Source: Candidatus Multivoradales bacterium (lineage in GTDB: Bacteria; Acidobacteriota; Thermoanaerobaculia; Multivoradales; JAHEKO01). From it: DNA of 64,000 nt. The notes beneath the pieces were generated by a model, which saw only the letters and a list, made by a program, of their open reading frames with translations, was not told where the DNA came from and did no database searches. Numbering within the stretch: the first letter of the stretch is position 1; each line of letters starts with the position of its first letter. The stretch lies in the NCBI GenBank assembly GCA_965223155.1, contig CBDCVR010000015.1, positions 1,120,001 through 1,184,000 on the forward strand. Reading direction: 5' to 3'. Below, one piece after another: positions 24,866-53,490 of this stretch. The position numbers and the translations under genes were made by a program.

Positions 24866-25009
24866 CCGCAAGGTGCGCGACCGTTGCATCGGTGACACGA
24901 TACGTTATGTTGGCGAGGGGCGGGAGAGGCGTGGTTTTTGACGACAGTTCGTCGCGGCTGGCGGGAACCCCACCGAAGAGCGGCGCTTGCACCGAAAAGG
25001 AGAGTTGCG

Positions 25010-46395: not shown

Positions 46396-49149
46396 CTAGT
46401 CGCCGATCGGCTGGCCGTCGGCGTCCATGAGTTGGATGTCGGCGATCCCGAGCTCCTCGATGCCGGCCGCCACCTTGGCGCGGTCGCCGACGATGACCCA
46501 GACCACGTCGTCAGGGTGCAGGACGGACTCGGCGGCCGCCATGACCGCGGGTTGATCGACCGCCCGGACCTTGCCGGCGTACGAGTCGAAGTGGTCGTCC
46601 TCGTAGCCGAAGCGCACCAGCTCGGCGAGCGAGCCGGCGACATCCGAGACAGTTTCCCACTGTCCAGGGAGGGTCAGGGTGCGGCTGTCGATGGCCCGCG
46701 CGACTTCTTCGTCGGTCGCCGGCATGTCGCCCAGGAGTCCGCGCAGCTCTTTGGTGAGCTCGGCGATCGATTCCTTGGTCTTGTCGGTCTGGACGGGAGC
46801 GTAGGCCAGGAAGAGGCGCTGGCCGCGGGCGCCCGGGATGAAGGTGCCGGCGCCGTAGGACCAGCCCTTGTCCTCACGCAGGTTCATGTTGACGCGGGCG
46901 GTGAAGTCTCCGCCCAGAACGGTGTTCATGGTCTCGATCGCGACCTCGTCCGGGTTCGACTTGGGCGGCGCCAGGTGTCCGGCGAGCAGGATCGACTGCT
47001 CCGAGTCCGGGCGGTCGATGAGATAGATCCGCTGGCCTTCCAGAATCGCCACCTCCGAGATGTCCTTGGCCGGGGCCTCGACCGCTGCCCAGTCGCCGAA
47101 TCGCTCCTGGATCAGGGGGACGATCTCGCCCAGGGTGGTGTCACCCACAACCACCAGCTTGGCGTTGTTGGGCCCGAAGAGCGTCGAATGGAACCCGGTG
47201 AGCGTGTCCCGGGTGATCGAGGCAACCGAAGCCTCCGTGCCCGAGCCGGTGAGCGGATTCGAGTAGGCGTGGCCTTCGCCGTAGAGGAGTCCCGGAAACA
47301 CCCGGAGCGCCATCTGGATGGGAGTCGCCTTCTCGCGCTGGATGCGGGCAATCTGTTGCTGCTTCAGGCGTTCCAGCTCGGCCTCGGGGAAGGACGGGTT
47401 GCGGACCACGTCGGCAAGGAGATCCAGGGAGTCTCCCAGGTTGGTCTTGAGCGCTGAGAGCCGCACCGCGGAGAGGTCCAGGTTCGAAGAGGACCCGAGC
47501 TCGGCCCCGAGCATGGCGAGCTCGTCCGAGAGCTCGAGAGCCGTGCGCGAGGTCGTGCCCTCATCCAGCATGTCCATCGCCAGCCGGGCGGTGCCGGGCA
47601 CGGCGTGCTGATCCGAGGCGTAGCCGGCGTCTACCAGCAGGCGAAGCTCGACCAGGGGTGCGGCGTGCCGCTCGGCCAGGAGGATCTCGAGGCCGTTGGC
47701 GAGCTGCGTCCGCTGGATGTCCGGGAAGTCGGCCGAAGGAGCTTCGCCGGTGTCCGGTAGCTCTGAGCGGTCGGCGCCCTCGGCTGCCGCCTGGTAGTTG
47801 CCGAACGGAACGACGTTGATGGCGAGCTCGCCGTCGGCAAGCCAGCGCGCGGCGGCCGCCTGAACGTCTTCGGCCGTCGCCGACTTGGCCCACTCCAGCC
47901 GCTTCTTGTAGTAGCCGGGGTCGCCGCCGTAGACCTGGTGGCGGGCCAGAAGGTCCGACTTGCCGCCGAAGCCGCCGATGCCCTCGATGTCGCGGACGAA
48001 CTCGGCGAAGAGCTGGGTCTTGGCGCGGCCGAGCTCCTCGTCGGTCGGGCCTTCCGCGATCAGGCGGGCGAGCTCCTCGTCGAGCGCGGCCTCGACCGCG
48101 GCAAGATCGCCGCCGGGCTGGGCCGTGGCCATCAGGATGAAGCCGCCGGCCAGCTCGAAGGGCCAGATCCACGCGCTGACGTCGGTCGCGGTGCGGTCGT
48201 CGTAGACCAGTCGCTTGAACAGACGCGAGGTCTTGCCATCGGCCAGGACACGGGTGGCGAGCTCCAGGAGCTCGGCGTCGCGGGTGCCCCACTCGGCCAC
48301 GTTCCACTGCTTGTAGACGCGGGCCTGTGCCACCCGATCCTGAAGGACTTCACGGTGGGAGCCCGTGCGCTTGGCAACCCAGGTCTCGGGCTGTTGCACC
48401 GGCGGTCCGGACGGAATGTCGCCAAAGTAGAGCTGGGCTTTCTCGCGGGCGGTCTCGACGTCGATGTCGCCGGCCAGGACCAGGACAGCGTTGGCGGCAC
48501 CGTAGTAGGTCTTGAACCACTCGTGCACGTCCTCGAGGGAGGCGGCGTTCAGGTCGTCCATCGATCCGATGGTCGACCACGAATAAGGATGAGCGGCCGG
48601 AAACGCGGCCCGCGGCATGAGCTCCCAGACCTTGCCGTAGGGCTGGTTCAAGCCCTGGCGCTTCTCGTTCTGGACGACGCCGCGCTGCTCGTCCAGGCGT
48701 TCTTGATCGACGGCGCCCAGCATGTGGCCCATGCGGTCCGACTCCATCCACAGGGTCAGGTCGAGGGCGTTGGTGGGCACGTTCTGGAAGTAGTTGGTGC
48801 GGTCGAACCAAGTCGTGCCGTTCAGCTCGGTGGCGCCGATCCGCTCCATGATCCGGAAGTAGTCGTCGTTGTAGTTCTCCGAGCCGTTGAACATCAGGTG
48901 CTCGAAGAGATGGGCGAAGCCCGTGCGCCCGGGCTTCTCGTTCTTCGACCCGACGTGGTACCAGATGTTGACCGCGACGATTGGCGCTTTGTGGTCTTCG
49001 TGGACGATGACGGTGAGACCGTTGTCCAGGGTGAACGCCTCGTAGGCGACGTCGGGAATCTCGAACTCGGCGGCTGCCGGAGTTGCCGGGGCCAGGGTCG
49101 TAAGGGCTGCCATCAGAGCCAGAGCCAGGGCCAGGAGCGAGTTGCGCAT
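46396..49149 (-). CDS. M16 family (pitrilysin/PqqL-like) zinc peptidase, secreted
   Basis: AAGGAG RBS; signal peptide; inverted zinc motif HLFEH, NGTT..DRTNY, LREDKGWSYG. Confidence 0.93.
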   Translation of the reverse strand: MRNSLLALALALMAALTTLAPATPAAAEFEIPDVAYEAFTLDNGLTVIVHEDHKAPIVAVNIWYHVGSKNEKPGRTGFAHLFEHLMFNGSENYNDDYFRIMERIGATELNGTTWFDRTNYFQNVPTNALDLTLWMESDRMGHMLGAVDQERLDEQRGVVQNEKRQGLNQPYGKVWELMPRAAFPAAHPYSWSTIGSMDDLNAASLEDVHEWFKTYYGAANAVLVLAGDIDVETAREKAQLYFGDIPSGPPVQQPETWVAKRTGSHREVLQDRVAQARVYKQWNVAEWGTRDAELLELATRVLADGKTSRLFKRLVYDDRTATDVSAWIWPFELAGGFILMATAQPGGDLAAVEAALDEELARLIAEGPTDEELGRAKTQLFAEFVRDIEGIGGFGGKSDLLARHQVYGGDPGYYKKRLEWAKSATAEDVQAAAARWLADGELAINVVPFGNYQAAAEGADRSELPDTGEAPSADFPDIQRTQLANGLEILLAERHAAPLVELRLLVDAGYASDQHAVPGTARLAMDMLDEGTTSRTALELSDELAMLGAELGSSSNLDLSAVRLSALKTNLGDSLDLLADVVRNPSFPEAELERLKQQQIARIQREKATPIQMALRVFPGLLYGEGHAYSNPLTGSGTEASVASITRDTLTGFHSTLFGPNNAKLVVVGDTTLGEIVPLIQERFGDWAAVEAPAKDISEVAILEGQRIYLIDRPDSEQSILLAGHLAPPKSNPDEVAIETMNTVLGGDFTARVNMNLREDKGWSYGAGTFIPGARGQRLFLAYAPVQTDKTKESIAELTKELRGLLGDMPATDEEVARAIDSRTLTLPGQWETVSDVAGSLAELVRFGYEDDHFDSYAGKVRAVDQPAVMAAAESVLHPDDVVWVIVGDRAKVAAGIEELGIADIQLMDADGQPIGD

Positions 49150-49461
49150 GTCGGGAGTCTCCTTCTGAACTGTGCGGGATCGGTACGGATACGGGCGTCG
49201 GGCTCGGCGCGGCCGGCGAACGCCGGACTGGCGAGTATATCGGGCCAACACGGGGATGAATTGCGCGGATTAGGTCGGGCCGAGTCGGTTCGGAGGCGGC
49301 CGATCTGCGGCCCTGGCAGGCATCGAACTGCGTGCCCTGGGCAGTGCCAGACGGGAGTTGGAGCGGCCGGCCTCTCAGCGGTCCGGATCCGCAGTGGACG
49401 TTCGCCCTGCGGACAAGGTTGGCGGCCCCTTCGGGACTGGTCTTCTTGGCAAATTGGATCG

Positions 49462-49665
49462 ATGGCGGGGGGCGACAAACAGTACGCAGAGCGCTTGGCA
49501 ACGACCCTCGATTTGTTCGTCGCCGGAGAGGAGATCATGCGGCAGAATCTCCGTCGCCGCAATCCAGGAAAGTCTCCCGAAGAGATTCGGGCCCTCCTCG
49601 ACGCCTGGCTTCGACACAGGCCGGGGGCCGAATTCGGTGACTGCGTTGGAGTTCGCCGACTCTAG
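49462..49665 (+). CDS. Small helical hypothetical protein (antitoxin-like, orphan)
   Basis: MAGGDKQYAERLATTLDLFVAGEEIMRQNLRRRNPGKSPEEIRALLDAWL..; the protein-like tail of a long shadow ORF. Confidence 0.55.
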   Translation: MAGGDKQYAERLATTLDLFVAGEEIMRQNLRRRNPGKSPEEIRALLDAWLRHRPGAEFGDCVGVRRL

Positions 49666-50225
49666 CCGGGGTCCTGCGATTCGGCCTGATTCTCGAACCG
49701 CAGGCTCTCGAGCGCTGCGGCGATGTCTCGATAGACCGCCGCGCAACCCTCGACACCGGCGGCGTAAGGGTCGCGGAACTCGCCCCGGCGAGTCGAAGAC
49801 AGGACTCCGAAGCGAACCGCCTTGGACTTTGCTTCCGGGAATCTCCGGGTCAACTCGGAGAAGAGCCATTCGTCGAAGACCGCCACGGCGTCGGCCCACG
49901 CCACGGCGGAAGCATCGGTCGCGCTCGATCGGTGGCCGTCGAGGTCGAACCCGAGCTTGCGGGCGGCCTTGCGGGCGTGCTCGGGCGTCGAGCGCCCCTC
50001 CTTTTCGAGAAAGCCGGTCGAACGCACCTCGATCTCCGGTCGGTGGGTCCGGATCCAGACCTCGGCAAAGGGGCTCCGGCAGATGTTGCCGTGGCAGACG
50101 AAGAGAACCCGCCGGGCGCCTTCCATTTGGCGCCGAGCGCCCTCCGTGCGCGCCGCGCGCAAGGGCGTGGAGTTGGGCAGAGTCAGCACCGGCCCGAGAA
50201 GGCGTCGTCGGATTCGCTCCCACAT
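49662..50225 (-). CDS. Low-molecular-weight protein-tyrosine phosphatase
   Basis: VLFVCHGNICRSP P-loop, HRS, DPY. Confidence 0.9.
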   Translation of the reverse strand: MWERIRRRLLGPVLTLPNSTPLRAARTEGARRQMEGARRVLFVCHGNICRSPFAEVWIRTHRPEIEVRSTGFLEKEGRSTPEHARKAARKLGFDLDGHRSSATDASAVAWADAVAVFDEWLFSELTRRFPEAKSKAVRFGVLSSTRRGEFRDPYAAGVEGCAAVYRDIAAALESLRFENQAESQDPG

Positions 50226-50339
50226 GGCCCTAGTATCGCCGCTTTATCCCTGGGGGGCGGTACGGAATAGGTATCCTTCTATGAGTCGGTCGGTTGGCGT
50301 CAAGAGTTTCGTTTCTTCTTTTTGTAGTTTTCCTTAGGT

Positions 50340-50500
50340 TTGGATCGAGGCTTGGGACGAGCTTCTATTCGCACTCTGTAGGGTTCTTCTTTGAACCGGT
50401 GCATGGTGAGTTTTGCGTCCGTTTAGGAATCGATGCTCCCATCTGTCACACGGTGTCGGGGCCACCAAGGATACTTTCGGAGTCATCGAACCTCTCAATC
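50340..50500 (-). ncRNA. Putative bridge/seek RNA of the IS1111-type element (ends approximate)
   Basis: Two stem/internal-loop/stem modules whose loop strands match the junction sequences (see findings). Confidence 0.75.
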
Positions 50501-50533
50501 CGTCCTTGCTTGTTGGTCGTCTAGTTATCTCTT

Positions 50534-51547
50534 CTACGCTGCCTTGGGAAAGGCTCGGAAGCTCTCACCTGTCACCCACAGCCTGTGGAGCAACACCGCG
50601 ATCTTCCTAGCTAGCGCGACCACGGCCTTGCCCTTACCCAGCCTCTCGACCAGGCCCTCAGCCCATCTCTTGAGTGACGACTCTTTGCGACAGTTCAACG
50701 CCGCATGAGCTGCCTGCACCAAGAGTCTGCGCATCTCCGAGTCGCCCTCGCGAGTGATCCGGCCCCTGACCTCATGCCCTCCTGAGCTGCGAAGCGACGG
50801 TCTCAAGCCCAGACACGCTCCGACGTCGCGGCTTTTCTCGAACCGATCCGGACGATCCATCCAGCCGACGAACGCAAGGCTCACCAGAGGCCCCACACCA
50901 GGAACCGTCTGCAGCCGACGGACCAGCTCGTTTGATCTCGACTCGGAGATGAGGTCGTCTTCGAGATGGTGGATCCGATCGGTCAGCTCGCCGATTGTCG
51001 TTACCAGAGGTTCGAGCGCTCCCAACAGGCCGGCTTCGACCGACATCGACGCGTACCGAGCCACGAAGCTCTTCGCCGGACATGAGGGCACTCGGTAGCC
51101 CTGTGCCCGCAGCGTTCCGCGTACGGAGTTGATCAGCGAGGTCCTGGTCTTCACCAGACTCGTTCGGACCCGAAGACGCGTCCGAAGCTCTTGGGCCTCA
51201 CCTGTGCGCTGGTAGACTGGTCGAAGCAAACCCAGATCCAACCGGCTCAAACGAGCCAGGATCTCGGCGTCGATTCCGTCCGTCTTCAGGGTCGATTCCG
51301 CGATCAGACGTACCCGGCGTGGATTGACCACCATCACCTCATGGCCGAGCTCAGACAGCAGTCGATAGACCCAGGGTGTGACCGGACCGCTCTCGAGCGT
51401 CACCTGCGAGCGTTCCCGATTGGCGAAGAACCTTCGCAGGCCCGTCTCGGTCGTCGGAACCCGCCGGCGAACCGTCACCTCACCGTCTTCTGATACGCCA
51501 CACACCTCGCTGTACTTCGAGTGAACATCGATGCCAAGATACTCCAT
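50534..51547 (-). CDS. IS110 family transposase/recombinase
   Basis: YLGIDVH, LES, KTDGIDA (DEDD RuvC-like), TVPGVG, GLRPSLRSSG, VALARK; AAGGAG RBS before ATG 51547. Confidence 0.95.
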   Translation of the reverse strand: MEYLGIDVHSKYSEVCGVSEDGEVTVRRRVPTTETGLRRFFANRERSQVTLESGPVTPWVYRLLSELGHEVMVVNPRRVRLIAESTLKTDGIDAEILARLSRLDLGLLRPVYQRTGEAQELRTRLRVRTSLVKTRTSLINSVRGTLRAQGYRVPSCPAKSFVARYASMSVEAGLLGALEPLVTTIGELTDRIHHLEDDLISESRSNELVRRLQTVPGVGPLVSLAFVGWMDRPDRFEKSRDVGACLGLRPSLRSSGGHEVRGRITREGDSEMRRLLVQAAHAALNCRKESSLKRWAEGLVERLGKGKAVVALARKIAVLLHRLWVTGESFRAFPKAA

Positions 51548-51690
51548 GGTCGGTCTCCTTTCTCGGCTCTGATGCCGATTCTTGGTTATCTCCAACTGGC
51601 ACAGTGTCCCAGCTGGAGACCGACCGACTCATCTCATCTGTCACCGTATTACCACCAACGAACCGCGCTGCCCCGATACACTCCACTCCC

Positions 51691-53490
51691 GTGGAGACCG
51701 TCCGGAATTTCTGCATCATCGCCCACATCGACCACGGCAAGTCGACCCTTGCCGATCGGTTGATCCAGCACTGCGGCGCCGTCGAGGACCGGGAGTTTCG
51801 GGACCAGATTCTGGACTCGATGGACATCGAGCGCGAGCGCGGCATCACCATCAAGTCGAACACGATCTCGCTCGACTACCGCGCCCGGGACGGCCGGGAG
51901 TACCGACTGAATCTGATCGACACTCCCGGCCACGTGGATTTCTCGCACGAGGTGCGGCGCTCGCTCATGTCTTGCGAGGGAGCGCTCTTGGTGGTGGACG
52001 CGGCCCAGGGCGTCGAGGCGCAGACCGTGGCCAATCTCTACTTGGCGCTCGAGTACGACCTCGAGATCGTGCCGGTCGTCAACAAGATCGACCTGCCGTC
52101 GGCCGACGTGGACAGCGCCCTCGAGGAGATCGACTCGGACCTGGGTCTCGATCCGTTCGACGCCGTGCCGTGCTCGGCCAAGACCGGCGCCGGCATCGAC
52201 GAGGTCCTGGAGGCGGTGGTGACGAAGCTGCCTGCGCCGGAGGGCGATCCGGAGGCGCCGCTTCAGGCGCTCATCTTCGACGCCCAGTACGATTCCTACC
52301 GTGGCGTCGTGCTGCTGGTGCGGGTGAAGGCCGGAACCCTCCGGCCGAAGCAGACGATTCGCCTCATGCACACCGCCAAGGACTACGACGTCGAGGAGGT
52401 GGGCCTCCTGAAGCTCAAGAAGGTCAAGACCGGAGGGCTCGAAGCCGGAGAGGTGGGCTACGTCATCGCCGGCATCAAGACGGTCCGGGACATCGAGATC
52501 GGCGACACTTTGACCGATGCCACAAGCTCGGCGTCCGAGCCGCTGCCCGGCTACAAGCCGGCCAAGCCCGTGGTTTTCTCGTCGGTCTATCCGATGTCTA
52601 CCGACGAGTATCAGGATCTTGCCAAGGCGCTCGACAAGCTGGCTTTGAACGACGCCGCTCTGACCTACGAGAAGGACTCGTCGGCGGCGCTCGGCTTCGG
52701 TTTCCGCTGCGGCTTTCTGGGCCTCCTGCATCTGGAAGTGGTCCAGGAGCGGCTGCAACGCGAGTACGATCTGTCGCTGCTTCTGACCGCGCCCTCGGTG
52801 CGCTACCGGATCGAGCTCTCGGACGGTGAGGAGGTGCGGATCGACAATCCGCAGTTCTATCCCGATCCGACGCACATCGAGCAGGCCTACGAGCCGTACA
52901 TCAAGGCTTCGATCCTGATTCCGGAGCGCTACATCGGCACCGTCATGGAGCTTTGCCGCGAGCGCCGGGGCGAGAACACCACCTTCAACTATCTGGCGGT
53001 GGGCCGGGTCGAGCTGACCTCCGAGCTGCCGCTCGCCGAAGTCCTGTTCGACTTCTACGACCGCCTGAAGAGCTCGACCCAGGGCTACGGTTCGTTCGAT
53101 TACGAGATCCTCGACTACCGGCCCACGAGTCTGGTCAAGGTGGACATCCTGGTCAACGACGAACCGGTGGACGCGCTCTCCCAGCTCGTCCACCGGGACA
53201 AGGCCCGGGCGCGCGCTCTCCACTACTGCGAGCGGCTGGCCGACACCATTCCCAAGCAACAGTTCAAGATCAAGGTCCAGGGCGTGATCGGCGGCAAGGT
53301 CATCGCCCGGACCACGATCTCCGCTTTTCGCAAGGACGTCACCGCCAAGTGCTACGGCGGCGACATCACCAGGAAGCGCAAGCTTCTCGAGAAGCAGAAG
53401 GCGGGCAAGAAGAAGATGATGGTCGTGGGCTCGGTCGAGATCCCGCAGAAGGCCTTCGTCGAGGTGCTGAAGAGCGATGCTGGCAGCTGA
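51691..53490 (+). CDS. lepA: Elongation factor 4 (LepA)
   Basis: RNFCIIAHIDHGKSTLADR, ERERGITIK, DTPGHVDF, GFRCGFLGLLH, KCYGGDITRKRKLL. GTG 51691. Confidence 0.97.
   Translation: METVRNFCIIAHIDHGKSTLADRLIQHCGAVEDREFRDQILDSMDIERERGITIKSNTISLDYRARDGREYRLNLIDTPGHVDFSHEVRRSLMSCEGALLVVDAAQGVEAQTVANLYLALEYDLEIVPVVNKIDLPSADVDSALEEIDSDLGLDPFDAVPCSAKTGAGIDEVLEAVVTKLPAPEGDPEAPLQALIFDAQYDSYRGVVLLVRVKAGTLRPKQTIRLMHTAKDYDVEEVGLLKLKKVKTGGLEAGEVGYVIAGIKTVRDIEIGDTLTDATSSASEPLPGYKPAKPVVFSSVYPMSTDEYQDLAKALDKLALNDAALTYEKDSSAALGFGFRCGFLGLLHLEVVQERLQREYDLSLLLTAPSVRYRIELSDGEEVRIDNPQFYPDPTHIEQAYEPYIKASILIPERYIGTVMELCRERRGENTTFNYLAVGRVELTSELPLAEVLFDFYDRLKSSTQGYGSFDYEILDYRPTSLVKVDILVNDEPVDALSQLVHRDKARARALHYCERLADTIPKQQFKIKVQGVIGGKVIARTTISAFRKDVTAKCYGGDITRKRKLLEKQKAGKKKMMVVGSVEIPQKAFVEVLKSDAGS

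Follow-up and report, generated by a model that had tools for sequence, protein, structure and literature searches.

Insertion sequences of the IS110 family, to which the IS1111 group belongs, encode a recombinase whose target is chosen by a small RNA. The mechanism class has been experimentally established since 2024, so a further element adds a member to it and not a principle. Bridge RNAs have been predicted in 93.0% of IS1111 elements, where they lie in the right end (PMC11208160). As described by Siddiquee et al. (PMC11187229), the seekRNAs of four IS1111 members co-purify with the transposase, are essential and can be reprogrammed. The layout rule given there for IS1111 seekRNAs places the top-strand match 5′ of the bottom-strand match, with the two overlapping in the target. 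The same source describes the characteristic geometry of the group, namely subterminal inverted repeats of 11–13 bp beyond which the element extends by 7 (or 6) bp on the left and by 3 bp on the right, and it reports a G(L)-P----S-G motif for the transposases of the IS110 family. The roles of the catalytic residues have been assigned for the IS621 enzyme (PMC11208158).

The element described herein was found in a 64,000-nucleotide stretch of the genome of a Candidatus Multivoradales bacterium (Acidobacteriota), hereafter called the window, to which all unprefixed coordinates refer. An earlier note on this DNA had proposed an IS1111-type recombinase with a bispecific guide RNA, and this class assignment holds, the open reading frame being that of an IS110-family DEDD transposase. 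The best explanation of the locus, to which we assign a probability of roughly 90%, is an IS1111-group element whose DEDD/serine recombinase is guided by a two-loop RNA to a 13-mer. The element is a member of the known IS1111 group of the IS110 family; it represents a clean example and not a new kind of system.

The transposase gene (50534–51550, minus strand) encodes 338 amino acids counted from the ATG (MEYLGIDVHS...). Its product matches the Pfam families DEDD_Tnp_IS110 (PF01548, E = 8.6e-25, residues 5–148) and Transposase_20 (PF02371, E = 4.5e-21, residues 211–290), and thus combines the DEDD RuvC-like N-terminal domain with the PF02371 C-terminal domain that mark IS110/IS1111 enzymes. 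The NCBIfam model NF033542, "IS110 family RNA-guided transposase", is matched with 241.3 bits at a cutoff of 140. The nearest solved structures are distant, with E = 2.8e-10 for the ISCro4 transposase and 5e-10 for that of IS621. When the protein is aligned to IS621 (8wt6) by eye, its GID, LES and KTDGIDA motifs stand opposite the acidic residues D, E, D, D of IS621. The stretch GLRPSLRSSG holds the G(L)-P----S-G motif, its serine–glycine being likewise aligned by eye with that of IS621. Among the loci fetched, the closest relative belongs to an Acidobacteria metagenome-assembled genome and shares 85% protein identity.

The insertion site was defined from the other copies in the same genome. 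Full-length copies number 14, of which 12 show 100% and 2 show 99.9% identity; the genome further contains one copy split by another insertion sequence and two copies of an 82%-identical sister element, termed B. The earlier note had suggested that other copies and empty alleles be sought; other copies and uninterrupted target sites are both present in this genome. All 14 full copies are inserted in the same orientation into the same sequence, being flanked by G[T/C]ATCCTTCT and, at the opposite end, by GTCACC; insertion is therefore specific with regard to both site and orientation. At the locus in the window, positions 51640–51645 hold the left target half in transposase orientation (minus-strand GGTGAC), on the side where GTCACC is found in 14 of 14 copies. 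The core and the right half (AG-GATAC on the minus strand, GTATC-CT on the plus strand) lie at 50271–50277. The right-half flank reads GTATCCT in 13 of the 14 copies and GCATCCT in one, which would form a U–G wobble with the guide.

The empty site is GGTGAC-AG-GATAC in transposase orientation, or GTATC-CT-GTCACC on the plus strand of the window. This 13-mer, GGTGACAGGATAC, is present in the genome in 17 uninterrupted and 15 occupied copies, so that roughly one exact copy in two is occupied by the insertion sequence, and 9 further sites are one position off. Examples of the uninterrupted sites are found at C14:366085–366097 and C13:301094/301152, and a one-mismatch variant lies inside the window at 24891–24903 (C15:1144891). 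The surrounding context is loose (gaaat.C ....tatttC), and the sites often form inverted pairs 45–80 nt apart. Judging from these features, the repeat may be akin to REP units or to miniature-transposon ends.

Contig C7 provides a direct comparison of an occupied and an empty locus, since it is the 98.9%-identical counterpart of C14:355657–366393 and harbors the element at the very position of the 13-mer in C14. BLAST aligns C7:1–10444 with C14:355657–366092 and C7:13185–13485 with C14:366091–366393, with the element in between, and the two pieces overlap on C14 by 2 nt (366091–366092), which are the duplicated AG. Because of the uninterrupted 13-mers and this overlap, the core and its duplication are 2 nt long (CT on the plus strand of the window) and the whole insertion sequence spans 50278–51639 (1362 bp, minus strand). 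This span contains one copy of the core (51638–51639), which is counted within the 7-nt left extension in transposase orientation. The reconstruction in the earlier note, GTATCCT-TCT-GTCAC with a TCT core, was off by 3 nt: it has no match at up to two mismatches in the 4.0-Mb genome, the first TCT (50278–50280) belongs to the element, and the circle junction proposed with it is 3 nt short. As this case illustrates, the core of an element of this type is readily misassigned from a single copy.

The identity of the sequence on both sides of all 14 copies, together with the absence of that 15-nt site from the genome, might be taken to mean that the conserved flanks (GTATCC..., ...GTCACC) are part of a longer element, in which case the loop matching them would bind the donor and not the target. 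However, GGTGACAGGATAC occurs 17 times without any element, the homologous loci of C7 and C14 differ only by the element and 2 nt, one flank varies (GCATCC) though the elements are identical, and sister B combines identical ends with different flanks. A longer element is refuted by the empty sites and the C7/C14 comparison, and its probability is close to nil.

With the boundaries set by the empty sites, the ends display the asymmetric geometry of the IS1111 group. The subterminal inverted repeat is perfect over 13 bp (ATGAGTCGGTCGG / CCGACCGACTCAT), in line with the 11–13 bp usual for the group. In transposase orientation, its left arm (minus-strand ATGAGTCGGTCGG) lies at 51620–51632 and its right arm at 50281–50293. 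Outward of the left arm follow the extension ATGAG and the core AG (51633–51639), an arrangement which is the same in relatives, and outward of the right arm the trinucleotide AGA (minus strand, 50278–50280). The terminal extensions thus amount to AGATGAG on the left (7 nt) and AGA on the right (3 nt). As in other members of the group, a long non-coding stretch lies downstream of the gene, the right repeat following 248 nt after the transposase stop codon; on the other side, the distance from the left repeat to the start codon is about 72 nt in L020, the closest relative. The element is intergenic, being located between a LepA/EF4-type GTPase gene and a phosphatase-like gene. Inspection by eye of the neighbours gives the LepA/EF4-type GTPase at 51604–53490 (plus), a low-molecular-weight phosphatase-like protein at 49662–50225 (minus) and an M16-type peptidase at 46396–49251 (minus). 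In the same-genus genome G015, the region upstream of lepA is not conserved and holds no such empty site.

A TTGACG hexamer points outward 17 nt inside the right-end tip (50298–50303, minus strand), and TTGAC(G) is read by eye 16–17 nt inside the tip at equivalent places in L025–L049. One possibility is that this hexamer forms the −35 half of a promoter that would be completed at the circle junction; another is that it belongs to an outward-facing promoter. A junction promoter is reported for ISEc11 in PMC11187229. A sigma-70-like promoter scan of the integrated element returned 0 sites. In the integrated state, the hexamer points toward the phosphatase-like gene at 49662–50225.

According to the minimum-free-energy fold, the guide RNA probably extends over 50342–50501 (minus strand), with a closing helix (50491–50501 with 50342–50350) around two loops. 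The fold of 50281–50540 (minus strand) has an energy of −60.9 kcal/mol (z = −2.05), and 4 of 200 shuffled sequences fold as well. The minus-strand RNA and its two-module fold had been described before; the letters are as written then, and both modules are present in the computed structure, with the stems TCGATG.CTCC/GGAGCATCGA, GGACG/CGTCC and GCAC/GTGC. A search of Rfam 15 returned no family at E ≤ 1 except a chance snoRNA match (14.9 bits against a threshold of 39).

The predicted target-binding loop (50430–50489, minus strand) is supported by the fold, by sequence matches, by compensatory changes and by the covariation of guides with flanks. It consists of an outer stem (50479–50489 with 50430–50439), an inner hairpin at about 50451–50466, and two strands between them, GTATCCT(T) on the 5′ side (50467–50474) and GTGACAG(ATG) on the 3′ side (50440–50449). 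The identity of the 5′ strand with the flank at 50271–50278, claimed earlier as 8/8, is confirmed: GTATCCTT has only two matches in the window, 50271–50278 (plus) and 50467–50474 (minus), for 0.42 expected, a count of two being reached in 10 of 100 shuffles. The 10/10 match of the 3′ strand to the other junction likewise stands, since CATCTGTCAC occurs only at 50440–50449 and 51635–51644 in the window, both on the plus strand, for 0.08 expected and with 0 of 100 shuffles reaching two. With the corrected boundaries, the register of these matches becomes clear. GUAUCCU agrees with the complement of AG-GATAC at 7 of 7 positions and GUGACAG with GTGAC-AG at 7 of 7, so that each strand spans 5 nt of flank and the 2-nt core; the additional nucleotides of the longer matches (U and AUG) pair with the element ends and not with the target. 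GTATCCT is complementary to the top strand and is located 25 nt to the 5′ side of GTGACAG, which has the sense of the top strand; both include the core AG. This is the layout of the IS1111 seekRNAs.

The predicted donor-binding loop (50355–50420, minus strand) is based on the fold and on the match of its 3′ strand to the right end. Its outer stem GGACG/CGTCC pairs 50416–50420 with 50355–50359, and its inner stem GCAC/GTGC, closed by a hairpin, pairs 50399–50402 with 50371–50374. The two strands are CTCACCA (50404–50410) on the 5′ side and ATAGAAG (50362–50368) on the 3′ side. The latter had been related before to the junction sequence CTTCTAT, and the plus strand does read CTTCTAT at 50362–50368 and at 50276–50282. 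Given the true boundaries, the 3′ strand is explained without invoking the flank, as AUAGAAG matches the terminal pentanucleotide ATAGA of the right end together with the core AG at 7 of 7 positions. The 5′ strand fits less well: CUCACCA agrees at 5 of 7 positions with the expected CUCAUCU, which represents the core and the first 5 nt of the left end.

In the relatives parsed as described below, AT[A/G]GAAG tracks right ends of the form ...CAT[A/G]GA in 24 of 24 cases, a pattern that comes down in essence to one split between two clades. In one clade (L039, L041, L044, L045, L047 and L050), the donor 5′ strand fails altogether to fit the present register, and the mismatches of the donor guide are conserved among many relatives. 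The inner hairpin shows double changes at 5 of 10 pairs. Close relatives show no variation in the outer donor stem, which is not recovered in the family alignment; when the donor loop was aligned by itself, the only stem to emerge was GCAC/GTGC, which is invariant, and covariation was absent.

Sister element B provides a natural exchange of the target guide. Its two copies (C13:297857–299161, L017, and C15:372320–373624, L016) share the ends and the donor-loop strands of the element, while their target-loop strands are GAAAAGGGU and GUGCCAG, which differ from those of the element, designated A. The insertion flanks differ as well, being GTTCC-AG...AC-CCTTTTC and GTGCC-AG...AG-CCTTTCC, and they belong to a second palindromic repeat containing ...CTAGTCAGTAGTTGACG.... 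Uninterrupted members of this repeat family have AC at the core (C4:9446 and C14:185512), whereas the core belonging to B itself is AG. The pair A and B thus constitutes a case of natural reprogramming, with the same ends and donor loop, another target loop and another target. A 42-nt fragment of an A-type left end adjoins the copy B2 (C13:299287–299328). A second repeated element of about 1372 bp sits a few hundred bases from both copies of B. The same element interrupts one copy of the insertion sequence on C7 (C7:11411–12782) and is also found at C14:571680–573051, C13:299686–301056, C15:374671–376045 and C11:5664–7035.

A wider set of relatives was collected by a class-wide genome search, which was used in place of a contig scan with the protein that had yielded 1 locus. 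A match was obtained in 52 of 401 genomes. In all, 30 loci were fetched (L020 and L022–L050) and 22 of them were parsed by conserved end motifs, 8 (L022, L024, L029, L030, L032, L033, L034 and L040) being left out because of truncated contigs or ends that did not fit the pattern. Together with A, B1 and B2, this gives 25 elements with 24 distinct combinations of guide and target. Among the loci left out, L022 (G341:C4:803433–807443) is a 79%-identical relative with 4 copies in its genome and a preserved target loop; at about 2650–2900, the position of its donor loop reads by eye like the end of an integrase-type open reading frame, and no right end is found within 500 nt.

Across the parsed set, the guides follow the flanks, as had been anticipated for a target-binding loop. 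The 3′-strand guide, taken in a fixed register as the 5 nt before AG-AU, matches its cognate left flank at 4.46 of 5 positions on average, whereas non-cognate pairs (n = 524) reach 1.66. For the 5′-strand guide, scored by its best 7-mer match, the averages are 6.17 of 7 for cognate and 4.79 for non-cognate pairs (n = 518). None of 10,000 permutations of the 24 combinations reaches the observed total, a significance that is overstated since related elements are not independent. Misfits to the rule are the 5′ guide of L031 (4/7) and the 3′ guides of L036 and L050 (3/5 each). In addition, when 19 relatives are compared, 4 of the 9 pairs in the outer target-loop stem have changed on both sides in a compensatory manner. 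The earlier assignment of the first module to the target and of the second to the donor is therefore supported by the empty sites, by the swapped guides of B and by the covariation of guides and flanks.

These data also bear on the question of whether the transposase protein alone might recognize the target, for example by the shape of the repeat, with the matches between RNA region and flanks being relics or coincidence. The target does sit in a loosely palindromic repeat, and for ISPpu10 a 2026 preprint (10.64898/2026.03.19.712850) reports that base pairing is supplemented by a structural layer of target recognition. Nevertheless, both loop strands change along with the flanks, between A and B as well as across the 24 combinations, a 10-nt match is not expected by chance, and the arms flanking the 13-mer pair little better than mismatched arms, with a mean contiguous stem of 3.56 compared with 2.85. 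Recognition by the protein alone is thus very improbable. The related idea that the target forms a hairpin loop was unconvincing: a stem of at least 4 was found at 13 of 32 sites, as against 27.6% of mismatched arm pairs, which indicates a loose palindrome only.

The preferred reading, guidance by a two-loop RNA, can be set out as a sequence of steps. Its observed part comprises the anatomy, the empty site, the 2-nt duplication, insertion at one sequence in a single orientation, and the covariation of guides with flanks; RNA expression, circular intermediate and strand exchange are carried over from the published mechanism of the family. A guide RNA of roughly 170 nt would be encoded in the 248-nt non-coding region 3′ of the gene. 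The 5′ strand of its target loop, GUAUCCU, would pair with the top strand of the core and right target (AG-GATAC), while the 3′ strand, GUGACAG, which has the sequence of the left target and core (GTGAC-AG), would pair with the bottom strand. The strands of the donor loop would address the joined ends of the element in the same manner. The predicted circle junction, in transposase orientation, joins the right end ...CTCATAGA through AG to the left end ATGAGATGAG..., and the excised circle would recombine at the 2-nt core with the 13-mer, a short repeat scattered over the genome, often as inverted pairs.

An intact and potentially reprogrammable element, as originally suggested, is plausible because the catalytic residues align with those of IS621 and 14 near-identical copies are present. 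The copies might instead be relics left by an earlier burst, with the element or its RNA now inactive. In favor of such relics, the copy on C7 is interrupted by another insertion sequence, and no circle junction was found among the contigs of four sequencing runs. These contigs likewise contain no joints, excision joint or empty allele for this locus; they break near 50271–50273 and 51627–51650, at or near the edges of the repeated unit, although one X1 contig crosses 50271–50273. Against relics stand the 12 copies that are 100% identical across 1359 nt with open reading frames. Moreover, the small contigs C2, C7 and C11 are 96–99.8% identical variants of regions of C14 and C15 that differ in the presence of the insertion sequence, and C7 and C11 hold the element where the main contig C14 is empty, which suggests recent transposition or strain variation within the sample. 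On balance, an inactive relic is unlikely, if less so than the alternatives weighed above.

In one genome, the locus offers a natural data set of 15 occupied and 17 free 13-nt targets, a sister with a swapped target loop, and relatives whose guides track their targets. Exact boundaries, core length and guide registers are thereby provided for an IS1111 clade of a poorly studied phylum, and A and B could serve as a compact pair for guide swapping.

The element can be compared with IS621 as described by Durrant et al. (PMC11208160) and Hiraizumi et al. (PMC11208158). The RNA of IS621 and the one predicted here both contain a target-binding and a donor-binding internal loop, and each loop devotes one strand to each DNA strand, both extending over a 2-nt core. 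The catalytic D, E, D, D and S–G residues align. When the site of the present element is read on the strand opposite the transposase, its core is CT, as in IS621, and the order of guides on that strand, first the bottom-strand guide 5′ and then the top-strand guide 3′, also corresponds. The AU after the 3′ target guide pairs with donor nucleotides beside the core, which recalls the handshake guide of IS621 (PMC11208158). In contrast, the transposases are distant (E = 5e-10), the RNA lies downstream of the gene here and upstream in IS621, the guides follow the opposite order with respect to the gene, the subterminal repeats are long, and one donor guide contains mismatches.

Because the layout on the opposite strand reads as left guide, right guide and 2-nt handshake around a CT core, the IS1111 and IS621 groups may share one strand-exchange chemistry, the cargo of gene and RNA being inverted relative to the site. 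This proposal is tentative, and we consider it somewhat more likely to fail than to hold. The junctions of B1 might be a natural record of such an exchange. In B1, whose target family has another first core base in its uninterrupted repeats (GT when read opposite the transposase), GT is encoded by the 5′ guide and the donor's CT by the 3′ guide; of the two junctions, one has retained GT and the other CT, in the same order. As a single instance, these junctions may fit cleavage just 3′ of the core on the opposite strand. The donor-guide mismatches, conserved in many relatives, could represent a built-in bias between excision and insertion.

A further parallel is provided by ISPpu9 and ISPpu10, which are described as IS110-family elements that target repetitive extragenic palindromes. 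Like these, the present element occurs in multiple copies at one position of a short intergenic repeat; unlike it, they are Pseudomonas elements, and the repeat found here is unrelated in sequence to theirs. The closest counterparts are ISEc11, ISPa11, ISKpn4 and ISPst6 (Siddiquee et al. 2024, PMC11187229). By the published description, they share with our element a DEDD transposase in the range of 330–350 amino acids, a long non-coding region downstream of the gene, subterminal repeats of 11–13 bp with extensions of 7 and 3 nt, a top-strand match 5′ of a bottom-strand match that overlaps it in the target, and a repeated sequence targeted in one orientation. The present element, known here from its sequence alone, differs from these four in its host lineage and in its target, GGTGAC|AGGATAC.
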